Part shown: positions 28,646 to 31,117 of the stretch, in pieces
Position numbering within the stretch: position 1 is the stretch's first letter
Layout of the letters: the number at the start of each line of letters is the position of its first letter
Virus record (IMG/VR): IMGVR_UViG_2541047689_000008
Origin: a virus
Lineage: Duplodnaviria > Heunggongvirae > Uroviricota > Caudoviricetes
DNA: 32,756 nt
Strand: one strand, 5' to 3'
Position numbers and translations under genes: made by a program
The notes under the pieces: generated by a model
Told to the model about the DNA's origin: nothing
Database searches by the model: none
What the model saw: the letters and a program-made list of their open reading frames with translations, nothing else

Positions 28646-31117
28646 ATGAGTAAAGTCTTTATTTGCGCCGCTATTCCTGACGAACTGGCAACAAGGGAAG
28701 AAGGCGCTGTGGCTGTAGCCACAGCCATTGAAGCTGGCGACGAACGCCGTGCTCGAGCAAAATTTCAATGGCAGTTCCTGGAACATTATCCGGCTGCTCA
28801 GGACTGCGCTTATAAATTTATTGTCTGCGAGGATAAACCTGGCATACCCCGCCCTGCCCTCGATTCATGGGATGCTGAATATATGCAGGAAAACCGCTGG
28901 GATGAGGAGTCTGCTTCTTTTGTCCCGGTTGAGACTGAATCCGATCCGATGAACGTCACTTTTGACAAGCTGGCCCCTGAAGTACAGAACGCTGTCATGG
29001 TTAAGTTCGACACATGTGAAAACATCACCGTTGATATGGTTATTAGCGCACAGGAATTGTTGCAGGAAGACATGGCAACATTCGACGGACATATCGTTGA
29101 AGCGTTGATGAAAATGCCAGAAGTTAACGCCATGTATCCGGAGCTTAAGTTGCACGCCATTGGGTGGGTTAAGCATAAATGTATTCCTGGTGCTAAATGG
29201 CCCGAAATTCAGGCAGAGATGCGCATCTGGAAAAAACGTCGCGAAGGTGAACGCAAGGAAACCGGAAAATACACGTCTGTTGTTGATCTCGCCCGCGCCA
29301 GAGCCAATCAACAGTACACTGAAAATTCAACAGGAAAAATCAGCCCGGTCATTGCTGCCATTCATCGCGAATACAAGCAGACATGGAAAACACTGGATGA
29401 CGAACTGGCCTACGCTCTCTGGCCTGGTGATGTGGATGCCGGAAACATTGACGGCAGCATCCATCGCTGGGCAAAAAAAGAAGTTATCGACAACGACCGC
29501 GAAGACTGGAAGCGTATCTCGGCATCAATGCGCAAACAGCCTGATGCCCTTCGCTACGACCGCCAGACTATTTTTGGCCTTGTCCGTGAGCGTCCGATCG
29601 ACATTCACAAAGATCCCATAGCACTGAACAAATATATCTGCGAATACCTGACGACAAAGGGCGTGTTTGAGAATGAAGAAACAGACCTGGGCACTGTTGA
29701 TGTTCTCCAGTCATCAGAAACACAAACTGATGCAGTGGAAACTGAGGTATCTGATATCCCAAAAAATGAAACCGCGCCGGAAGCTGAACCATCTGTAGAG
29801 CGTGAGGGGCCGTTCTATTTCCTCTTCGCAGATAAGGACGGAGAAAAATACGGTCGCGCAAACAAACTTTCTGGTCTGGATAAGGCACTGGCTGCTGGCG
29901 CCACTGAAATCACAAAAGAAGAATATTTTGCCCGAAAAAATGGCACATACACGGGCTTACCGCAAAATGTAGATACCGCTGAAGATTCAGAACAACCAGA
30001 GCCGATAAAAGTTACCGCTGACGAAGTAAACAAAATTATGCAGGCAGCCAATATCAGCCAGCCTGACGCCGATAAGTTGCTTGCTGCATCACGTGGTGAA
30101 TTTGTTGAAGGGATTAGTGACCCGAATGATCCGAAATGGGTTAAGGGGATCCAGACCCGCGATTCTGTGAACCAGAACCAGCATGAATCGGAACGGAACT
30201 ACCAAAAAGCGGAACAAAACAGCACAAATGCGTTACAAAACGAGCCAGAAACGAAACAGCCTGAACCAGTGGCGCAACAGGAAGTGGAAAAAGTCTGCAC
30301 CGCCTGCGGTCAGACCGGCGGCGGCAACTGCCCTGATTGTGGCGCGGTGATGGGCGACGCAACATACCAAGAAACATTCGATGAAGAGTATCAGGTTGAA
30401 GTTCAGGAAGATGATCCGGAGGAAATGGAAGGCGCTGAACATCCACACAAGGAGAACACTGGCGGCAATCAGCATCACAATAGCGATAATGAAACTGGCG
30501 AGACGGCAGATCACTCAATTAAGGTGAACGGTCATCACGAAATCACATCCACCAGCAGGACGTGTGACCATCTAATGATCGACCTTGAAACCATGGGAAA
30601 AAATCCTGATGCCCCGATCATCTCAATAGGTGCAATATTTTTCGATCCGCAAACCGGAGATATGGGACCGGAATTTAGTAAGACTATCGATCTGGAAACT
30701 GCTGGCGGAGTCATTGATCGGGACACCATTAAATGGTGGCTTAAGCAATCACGCGAAGCGCAATCTGCCATTATGACCGATGAAATCCCGTTAGATGATG
30801 CACTGTTACAATTGCGGGAATTTATCGACGAAAACTCCGGTGAATTTTTTGTTCAGGTTTGGGGAAATGGAGCCAACTTCGACAACACGATTTTGCGCCG
30901 TTCATACGAACGGCAGGGGATCCCCTGCCCGTGGCGTTACTACAACGATCGCGATGTACGCACAATCGTTGAGCTGGGGAAAGCCATAGACTTCGATGCC
31001 AGAACGGCTATTCCATTCGAAGGTGAGCGCCATAATGCACTTGATGACGCCCGTTACCAGGCAAAATACGTTTCAGTTATCTGGCAAAAACTGATCCCGA
31101 GTCAGGCTGATTCTTAA
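28646..31117 (+). CDS. Large recombination-region protein (YdfE-like): acidic N-terminal region, CxxC...CxxC zinc ribbon, C-terminal DEDDh-type 3'-5' exonuclease domain
   Basis: 823 aa. C-terminus has exonuclease motifs MIDLETMG (Exo I), WGNGANFD (Exo II), HNALDDARY (Exo III). Zinc ribbon CTACGQTGGGNCPDCG. Sits at the exo/bet position between the dicB operon and xis. Confidence 0.72.
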   Translation: MSKVFICAAIPDELATREEGAVAVATAIEAGDERRARAKFQWQFLEHYPAAQDCAYKFIVCEDKPGIPRPALDSWDAEYMQENRWDEESASFVPVETESDPMNVTFDKLAPEVQNAVMVKFDTCENITVDMVISAQELLQEDMATFDGHIVEALMKMPEVNAMYPELKLHAIGWVKHKCIPGAKWPEIQAEMRIWKKRREGERKETGKYTSVVDLARARANQQYTENSTGKISPVIAAIHREYKQTWKTLDDELAYALWPGDVDAGNIDGSIHRWAKKEVIDNDREDWKRISASMRKQPDALRYDRQTIFGLVRERPIDIHKDPIALNKYICEYLTTKGVFENEETDLGTVDVLQSSETQTDAVETEVSDIPKNETAPEAEPSVEREGPFYFLFADKDGEKYGRANKLSGLDKALAAGATEITKEEYFARKNGTYTGLPQNVDTAEDSEQPEPIKVTADEVNKIMQAANISQPDADKLLAASRGEFVEGISDPNDPKWVKGIQTRDSVNQNQHESERNYQKAEQNSTNALQNEPETKQPEPVAQQEVEKVCTACGQTGGGNCPDCGAVMGDATYQETFDEEYQVEVQEDDPEEMEGAEHPHKENTGGNQHHNSDNETGETADHSIKVNGHHEITSTSRTCDHLMIDLETMGKNPDAPIISIGAIFFDPQTGDMGPEFSKTIDLETAGGVIDRDTIKWWLKQSREAQSAIMTDEIPLDDALLQLREFIDENSGEFFVQVWGNGANFDNTILRRSYERQGIPCPWRYYNDRDVRTIVELGKAIDFDARTAIPFEGERHNALDDARYQAKYVSVIWQKLIPSQADS

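Follow-up and report, generated by a model that had tools for sequence, protein, structure and literature searches.

What does a lambdoid prophage of Escherichia coli carry in the place where the Rac prophage has recE-recT, when no annealase gene lies beside it? The question is raised by a gene for an 823-residue YdfE-like protein in the viral record IMGVR_UViG_2541047689_000008 (Caudoviricetes), whose 32,756 nucleotides were analysed as a whole and are referred to here as the window. The original prediction, made from the letters alone, had put this gene in the recombination slot, which is indeed where it sits, and had described an intact, uninterrupted reading frame with a CxxC...CxxC zinc ribbon and readable Exo I-III motifs, all of which are recovered here (Table 1). 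The evidence inclines us, by a modest measure, to see its product as a DexA-like 3'-5' DNA exonuclease that is borne on a RecE-type scaffold, produced once the dicBF operon is derepressed, and active with no annealase at its side. The scaffold would bring whatever effector it bears to a common target related to DNA ends, and the effector borne here would trim DNA from 3' ends, as T4 DexA does. The protein would be made on derepression of the early operon, i.e., on prophage induction, and the exonuclease would act solo instead of pairing with an annealase in a SynExo recombinase.

The C-terminal 183 residues very probably fold into a DexA/Rv2179c-family 3'-5' exonuclease of the two-metal DEDDh (DnaQ-like) class, in which the catalytic pentad is intact. 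The original prediction had staked itself on the C-terminus belonging to the DEDD superfamily, and the profile search places it there: the Pfam Rv2179c-like family PF16473 covers residues 642-813 (226.5 bits, cutoff 27, E=2.4e-67; positions 2-177 of a 177-position profile), and the RNase_T model gives a weak match (E=4e-4). The pentad consists of D646-L-E648 in Exo I, D746 in Exo II (NGANFD) and H796-x4-D801 in Exo III, and none of the five varies across a 14-sequence alignment in which T4 DexA (D7/E9/D119/H186/D191) is one of the members. The polarity of the DEDDh family is 3'-5'. In a single-sequence search of the PDB, the T4 DexA entry 8KEL (E=1.6e-6) and that of its S87A/D90A mutant, 8KEN, both deposited as 'Exodeoxyribonuclease', are the sole matches at E<=0.01, and DexA has been shown to degrade DNA exonucleolytically from 3' to 5' (Kang et al., NAR 2025, PMC12153337).

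The first 640 residues are shown to be a non-catalytic scaffold, built from a YdfE_N head, a YdfE_C neck, a small beta-rich domain, an EFVEGIS motif, the zinc ribbon and disordered acidic linkers. A large part of this scaffold is shared with RecE: BLASTP aligns residues 262-625 with residues 278-591 of K-12-type RecE (E=1e-62), with near-identity from residue 473 on, through the zinc ribbon and the acidic linker, and nucleotides 1420-1867 of the gene are 85% identical to recE. The homology stops at residue 625 (RecE 591), just short of the PD-(D/E)xK domain of the RecE crystal structure; the NCBIfam RecE equivalog NF007259 is matched at positions 271-602 of 877 only (282.9 bits against a cutoff of 1269, E=5e-84), and Pfam gives no match to a PD-(D/E)xK nuclease (PF12684-type) in the 823-residue protein, which in catalytic terms is not a member of the RecE family. 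The slot relation is one of true homology, and the gene belongs to a modular, effector-swapping family, two points that the original prediction had missed. The same junction is found in a second E. coli variant (L006, 813 residues), in which the head and neck of RecE itself (RecE 50-591, 59% identity) are joined to the same DEDDh domain and followed directly by xis-int; this fusion is also represented by P0124. Compared with Rac, where the order is recE-recT-ralR-rcbA-xis-int, the DEDDh cassette stands in for the RecE nuclease domain, recT and the genes after recT. Homology between the head (residues 1-205) and the RecE head (residues 1-260) was also considered and is rejected (hhalign probability 0.2%).

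AlphaFold2 (AF2) modelling of residues 1-470 gives confident folds at residues 1-200, 245-343 and 385-435 with disordered segments between them; it uses a 23-sequence alignment of distant representatives, as a word-indexed search had returned nearly only sequences of about 90% identity or more. The Pfam families YdfE_N (PF27430) and YdfE_C (PF27432) are precomputed on relatives of at least 90% identity, so that the domain call on the 823-residue protein is indirect. In one relative, the neck matches RecE 226-368 at 47% identity. The beta-rich domain, over which the RecE alignment is poor, also occurs in the relative P0130, and the EFVEGIS motif returns, as EF/YVEGIS-type variants, in several relatives bearing different effectors. 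The zinc ribbon is confined to E. coli-type linkers and absent from most relatives outside E. coli, and is therefore best seen as an optional insert rather than a family hallmark. The acidic N-terminal region of the original prediction stands insofar as residues 51-100 are a maximum of acidity, but the wording was loose, as stronger maxima lie in the linkers at residues 351-400 and 551-600, the latter with 28% D/E and no K/R.

Outside this gene, the scaffold recurs with the same or other effectors. An exhaustive HMMER search of 1.84 billion representatives returns 11,734 relatives, and domain mapping of the long ones, a census that is query-driven and so biased to the query's own architecture, counts RecE_N plus DEDDh (n=13), YdfE_N plus DEDDh (n=4), DEDDh with no detected head (n=4), YdfE_N plus a Rad52-like domain (n=6), PD-(D/E)xK nucleases behind RecE_N (n=2) or YdfE_N (n=1), and unassigned effectors behind either head (n=2 each). 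The family thus combines one of two unrelated heads (YdfE_N or RecE_N) with a common neck and linker and one of three effectors, DEDDh, PD-(D/E)xK or Rad52-like. The Rad52-like effector, of about 270 residues, has a Pfam Rad52_Rad22 match of its own that is below threshold (E=0.0034); for the C-terminus of P0136, a five-sequence profile finds no match in the PDB, and Foldseek with its AF2 model (predicted local distance difference test score, pLDDT, 69) finds no Rad52, RecT or Redbeta. It is assigned as a Rad52-like annealase because its stand-alone homologues (about 243 residues, E~1e-50, 41-50% identity) exceed the Pfam Rad52_Rad22 gathering threshold (23-34 bits); NCBI gives some of them the name 'Rad52/Rad22 family DNA repair protein'.

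Fusions of the YdfE_N/YdfE_C scaffold with this domain are seen in P0136 (L007 5650-7986), P0148, P0150, P0176 and P0229. In L007, KilR and a Gam homologue precede the fusion, and Sipho_Gp157 follows it, as do the excisionase and integrase genes. The PHROGs label 'exonuclease' on the Rad52-like fusions (phrog_2489, phrog_7838) appears to be a mis-annotation. P0130 (702 residues) carries the YdfE scaffold with residues ~445-702 outside any Pfam family and matched by phrog_26058 only, and may represent a fourth effector type.

The effector type goes together with the presence or absence of an annealase gene. The original prediction had seen no RecT/Bet-like neighbour, and this holds: RecT, Rad52-like, Gam and RecE-nuclease probes run against the window by six-frame tblastn and hidden Markov model searches give nothing better than E=0.05, and an annealase is likewise absent from the NCBI Prokaryotic Genome Annotation Pipeline (PGAP) annotation of a near-identical prophage and from a Pfam scan of the neighbouring open reading frames. 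Five DEDDh lineages can be distinguished (the window, L006, L036, L037/L038, and the stand-alone 189-residue version of Salmonella L039-L042), and in all of them the early-left genes end with the DEDDh gene, xis-int follows at once and an annealase is missing, so that the adjacent annealase gene that characterises SynExo systems (an exonuclease plus a single-strand annealing protein) is found neither at the window gene nor in the four other lineages. The 5'-3' resection with 3' overhangs that also marks such systems is not to be expected of a DEDDh enzyme. The fusion of YdfE_N with a PF12684 PD-(D/E)xK nuclease (P0138), in contrast, is followed by a RecT-family gene (PF03837, E=2e-36). A polarity opposite to that of RecE and lambda Exo, together with the lack of an annealase in the examined lineages, suggests a nuclease that works alone.

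In Salmonella L039-L042, the stand-alone version (5001-5570, 58% identical) lies directly 5' of a DUF1233 excisionase gene and the integrase gene, and is preceded by genes for a DndB-domain protein, a protein without a Pfam match, DUF2303 and YfdP.

Expression on induction is suggested by the operon. The gene is the last of the DicA-controlled dicBF early-left operon, in the recE position directly before xis-int, in the order DicA/CI-like repressor, ydfA, ydfB remnant, DicF, dicB, ydfD, exonuclease, xis, int; for K-12, transcription of ydfE has been described as driven by the dicB promoter of this DicA-controlled operon (bioRxiv 10.1101/2024.09.21.614188). A sigma-70 consensus scan of 27600-31600 finds no promoter-like site on the strand of the gene, and terminator-like sites in the same interval are no better than those of shuffled controls. 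The original prediction had described the K-12 counterpart as fragmented, and rightly so: a K-12-like genome retains nucleotides 1-767 of the gene at 99.7% identity, followed by an IS2 transposase fragment, and is annotated 'exonuclease, incomplete'; the window therefore holds ydfE in its intact form.

The arrangement is far from rare. Among 5,426 complete E. coli genomes, and at a coverage of at least 80%, the whole gene is present in 3,536, the DEDDh cassette alone in 4,047 (8,097 copies) and the RecE nuclease domain in 1,729 (1,826 copies), with recT under a match for every recE match listed. Genomes with any match to the gene have it at a median of 2 places and a maximum of 10, truncated copies are numerous, and viable temperate phages such as mEp460, HannyBb, PhiR42_1, Tritos and the PPompW family carry it. 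The gene, its domains and the exonuclease label are already in PGAP, PHROGs and Pfam: the gene product is 100% identical to WP_001531708.1 (PGAP name '3'-5' exonuclease') and matches PHROG 2082 ('exonuclease', 823 positions) end to end. The claim of the original prediction that a DEDDh nuclease is unusual here consequently fails, except by comparison with textbook lambda. Some copies are named 'exodeoxyribonuclease VIII', 'exonuclease VII' or 'exoribonuclease', none of which is justified by their domain content. In the literature searched, which mostly leaves subscription journals outside its coverage, no functional study of this protein was found, nor any report of the RecE-scaffold homology, the exchange of effectors or the strict absence of an annealase with DEDDh, of which an earlier description is possible.

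Other functions can be envisaged for such a protein. One would make it a functional replacement of RecE, preparing DNA ends on which an annealase or recombinase could act in trans, either host RecA/RecFOR or the single-strand annealing protein of a co-resident prophage. Resection with 3'-5' polarity yields 5' overhangs, unsuited to the loading of RecA or of RecT/Redbeta, and ExoI, itself a DEDDh enzyme, suppresses rather than promotes RecF-pathway recombination in E. coli. We therefore consider this an improbable role, despite a slot and scaffold that are the same as those of RecE, whose N-terminal region in the full-length protein raises linear-linear recombination (review PMC11611040), and despite the several lambdoid prophages often present per E. 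coli genome, which agree with the multiple matches per genome given above; the contrast between the five lineages without an adjacent annealase and the PD-(D/E)xK versions, which always have one, speaks against it as well.

No better placed is a prophage defence or superinfection-exclusion nuclease like EcD, which would destroy foreign phage DNA, or DNA modified with 5-hydroxymethylcytosine (5hmC), from 3' ends. EcD ('HREX'), an E. coli homologue of DexA, is reported to digest 5hmC-containing T4 DNA and to protect against T4 (PMC12153337); it belongs to the same Pfam family and aligns with residues 644-816 of the 823-residue protein (38% identity, 183 residues, E=4e-34), although it is not among the top 120 close homologues of the latter. 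Prophage ends near int often house defence genes, the window contains a homologue of a dCTP-deaminase defence gene, and a cas-associated DEDDh model in PADLOC is weakly matched (E=8.5e-7), although the full-length protein has no PADLOC match. However, EcD and this protein differ at two diagnostic positions. In EcD an Ala replaces the equivalent of DexA D90 and the enzyme stays dimeric, and 5hmC recognition is ascribed to Trp at the position of DexA W152 together with an acidic residue at that of D169 (PMC12153337). Here, EcD A78 corresponds to D718 and the W152 position to Y766 (aromatic, not Trp); D169 aligns with D784, in a loop of uncertain alignment. The domain thus seems to belong to the family of EcD but not to the EcD subtype, and neither the 5hmC specificity nor the anti-T4 activity of EcD can be transferred to it. 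Moreover, the scaffold is common to recombination proteins rather than defence systems, and the gene lies in the toxic dicBF operon, repressed by DicA, where the consensus scan gives it no promoter-like site on its strand, which argues weakly against the lysogen expression that exclusion needs.

The EcD sequence was obtained from IMG/VR viral contigs through its forward cloning primer (189 residues, with A78 matching the paper). The gene or near-identical copies occur on at least six viral or prophage contigs (L012, L017, L027, L028, L030 and L033), and EcD, published as a bacterial defence gene, is therefore probably phage-borne too. The reverse primer published for EcD contains an additional A that the genomic 3' end does not have.

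Less probable again is an RNase role, in which the enzyme would work as Rv2179c does, as a 3'-5' exoribonuclease, either on transcripts of the host or phage or in trimming the 3' end of an RNA such as DicF, which is encoded in the exonuclease's own operon. Pfam names the family after the exoribonuclease Rv2179c, and '3'-5' exoribonuclease' is a frequent PGAP name for homologues. The unbiased PDB search, however, returns the T4 DexA 'Exodeoxyribonuclease' entries alone, and the genes upstream in other lineages are called Rrf2-family or DndB-family rather than dicB/ydfD (DicF was not searched for there). A DNA substrate is favoured because the characterised close relatives, DexA and EcD, act on DNA, because the alternative effectors of the scaffold (the PD-(D/E)xK exonuclease and the Rad52-like annealase) are DNA-end enzymes, and because RecE aids linear-linear recombination.

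Selection bears on whether the fusion has any function at all. Relative to three diverged alleles (mEp460, Evi and strain 2014C-4135), the ratio of nonsynonymous to synonymous substitution rates (dN/dS) is 0.18-0.28 for the whole gene, 0.06-0.09 for the head (residues 1-200), 0.14-0.17 for the neck (245-343), 0.04-0.06 for the beta domain (385-437), 0.07-0.20 for the EFVEGIS motif (473-506), 0.02-0.19 for the zinc-ribbon region (549-580) and 0.10-0.18 for the DEDDh domain (641-823), as against near-neutral values of 0.4-1.5 in the linkers (344-384, 438-472, 507-548 and 581-640; 0.77-0.98 for 581-640 alone), a pattern that parallels the order and disorder of the AF2 model. Each folded module is under purifying selection, and the protein is therefore no junk fusion. 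A decaying or meaningless mosaic fusion kept by prophage hitch-hiking, as might be suspected from the strongly mosaic early regions of phages, the K-12 copy broken by IS2 at no obvious cost and the plentiful truncated copies, is largely refuted by this contrast between folded modules (0.02-0.19) and neutral linkers, and is very improbable given also the invariant pentad, the full-length copies in thousands of genomes and in viable phages, and the independent origin of an identical architecture on two different heads.

The reading as a solo DexA-like exonuclease made on derepression has its own weak points. Enzyme activity and biological role are predicted here from sequence. Foldseek of the N-terminal AF2 model against the PDB returns nothing informative (best E=1.6), so that no target of the scaffold is indicated; the founder of the Pfam family, Rv2179c, is named an exoribonuclease, and a preference for DNA is drawn only from DexA, EcD and the DNA-directed partners of the scaffold. 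As to the absence of an annealase, the Redbeta and Erf types are excluded just by PGAP annotation and Pfam scans of neighbouring genes, with no dedicated probes, and the window stops short of the far (tail-side) end of the prophage. Finally, a weak or non-canonical internal promoter could escape a consensus scan, and expression confined to induction is deduced from the operon position and the K-12 literature.

If the preferred reading is right, the 'recombination slot' of E. coli prophages would most often hold a solo 3'-5' exonuclease, found in about 75% of complete genomes, and not the textbook exonuclease-annealase pair. The purpose of this exonuclease may be to remove 3' tails or linear DNA in the lytic phase, to scavenge nucleotides or to compete with other DNA. 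A wider and distinctly more tentative possibility is that the RecE-type N-terminal region acts as a general delivery platform, taking interchangeable DNA-end effectors to one common target. A scaffold that carries three kinds of effector suggests a job independent of the type and polarity of the nuclease. In that case, the DEDDh version, the commonest occupant of the slot in E. coli, would be an annealase-independent system whose purpose is the opposite of recombination or something else, such as breaking down 3' tails in the manner of ExoI, clearing away linear DNA or that of competitors, or counter-defence. Although recombineering relies heavily on RecET, the first ~590 residues of RecE have been without known function for decades; one scaffold bearing three effectors in nature provides a direct experimental handle on this region.

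Table 1 Features of the exonuclease gene, its product and the adjoining early-left genes, with positions counted from the first letter of the window
Feature	Position	Strand	Residues	Details
Complete exonuclease gene	28646..31117	+	823 codons + stop	One uninterrupted open reading frame, ATG start (open reading frame listing)
Shine-Dalgarno GAGG	28632..28635	+		10 nt 5' of the ATG, read from sequence
Head module, YdfE_N type	28646..29260	+	1-205	
Neck module, YdfE_C type, common to RecE	29378..29674	+	245-343	AF2 pLDDT ~90; RecE alignment from RecE residue 278
Small beta-rich domain GPFYF...GRANKL...EEYFARKNG	29798..29956	+	385-437	AF2 pLDDT 76-85
Conserved motif DADKLLAASRGEFVEGISDPNDPKWVKGIQTRD (EFVEGIS motif)	30062..30163	+	473-506	Near-identical to RecE 451-484
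Zinc ribbon C551-xx-C554-x7-C562-xx-C565	30296..30340	+	551-565	Regular-expression match; identical in RecE from C517
Acidic low-complexity linker	30341..30565	+	566-640	Swap junction at about residue 625, near its end
DEDDh 3'-5' exonuclease domain (predicted), DexA/Rv2179c-like	30566..31114	+	641-823	PF16473 match
DicA/CI-like repressor, head of early-left region	26383..26790	+		Pfam HTH_3 E=1e-15, Phage_CI_repr E=7e-6
DicF small RNA, upstream in early-left operon	27950..28001	+		Rfam RF00039, 72.5 bits, E=5e-15
dicB and ydfD, immediately 5' of exonuclease gene	28176..28552	+		Pfam DicB E=1e-39, DUF1482 E=4e-26; PGAP names
Excisionase	31190-31441	+		Pfam DUF1233 E=2e-31; PGAP agrees
Tyrosine integrase	31461/31476-32756	+		Pfam Arm-DNA-bind_2 and Phage_integrase; PGAP agrees

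The prophage in the window is lambdoid, occupies the Qin site adjoining rspB and is a mosaic relative of a prophage of E. coli KK19-02, in which the exonuclease gene is 100% identical. Alignment with the best-matching genome (NZ_CM144238.1) shows blocks of 99.98% down to 88% identity, and a stretch of ~700 bp (~26200-26885) including the repressor gene does not align, indicating that the repressor/immunity region differs though the exonuclease gene is identical. The anti-phage dCTP deaminase homologue (22270-23908, minus strand) is split into two overlapping open reading frames (22270-23541 and 23324-23908), both matching the PADLOC dCTPase model (E=1e-134 and 1e-30); the block is 98.6% identical to KK19-02 with 5 gaps, and as the KK19-02 gene is one intact coding sequence of 545 codons, the window copy looks frameshifted. 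At 27072-27689 (plus strand), a 205-residue open reading frame with a ydfB-like start, a CPICG motif and no Pfam family matches phrog_35040 over its full length; PGAP annotates a truncated ydfB only at this place, and ydfC is absent from the window prophage. GC content falls to 0.34-0.42 at 13000-18000, from ~0.54 across the structural genes, and this block holds cargo typical of Qin-type prophages: three cold-shock paralogues (cspF, cspB and cspI), ynfN, gnsB and genes for lysis.

The 823-residue protein can be set beside several known systems. K-12 YdfE, the Qin pseudogene, is its orthologue by the 99.7% nucleotide identity mentioned above, but keeps only ~255 codons before IS2 and has lost the linker, the zinc ribbon and the nuclease. 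RecE (exodeoxyribonuclease VIII of Rac) has the same early-left operon position 5' of xis-int, a homologous non-catalytic region and a similar size (866 residues), and differs in its unrelated head, in its PD-(D/E)xK (5'-3') nuclease in place of the putative DEDDh (3'-5') domain, and in the recT, ralR and rcbA genes, which do not follow the 823-residue gene. Rv2179c of Mycobacterium tuberculosis, the founder of PF16473, shares the DEDDh fold family by the Pfam model, whereas it is exoribonuclease by Pfam name, a chromosomal stand-alone protein, and not retrieved at E<=0.01 in PDB searches with the query. EcD (GenBank HAK9828821.1) shares the domain family and its occurrence in E. coli and its mobile elements, and begins exactly at the Exo I motif, but is a stand-alone protein of 189 residues with Ala and Trp where D718 and Y766 stand here. 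T4 DexA has in common the Pfam family and the catalytic pentad and provides the closest solved structure to the domain, with differences in identity (~29%), in residues (DexA S87 and W152 correspond to P715 and Y766) and in setting, since DexA is a 227-residue stand-alone protein of a virulent phage with extra loops, whereas the DEDDh domain here belongs to a temperate phage and is fused to a scaffold of 640 residues.

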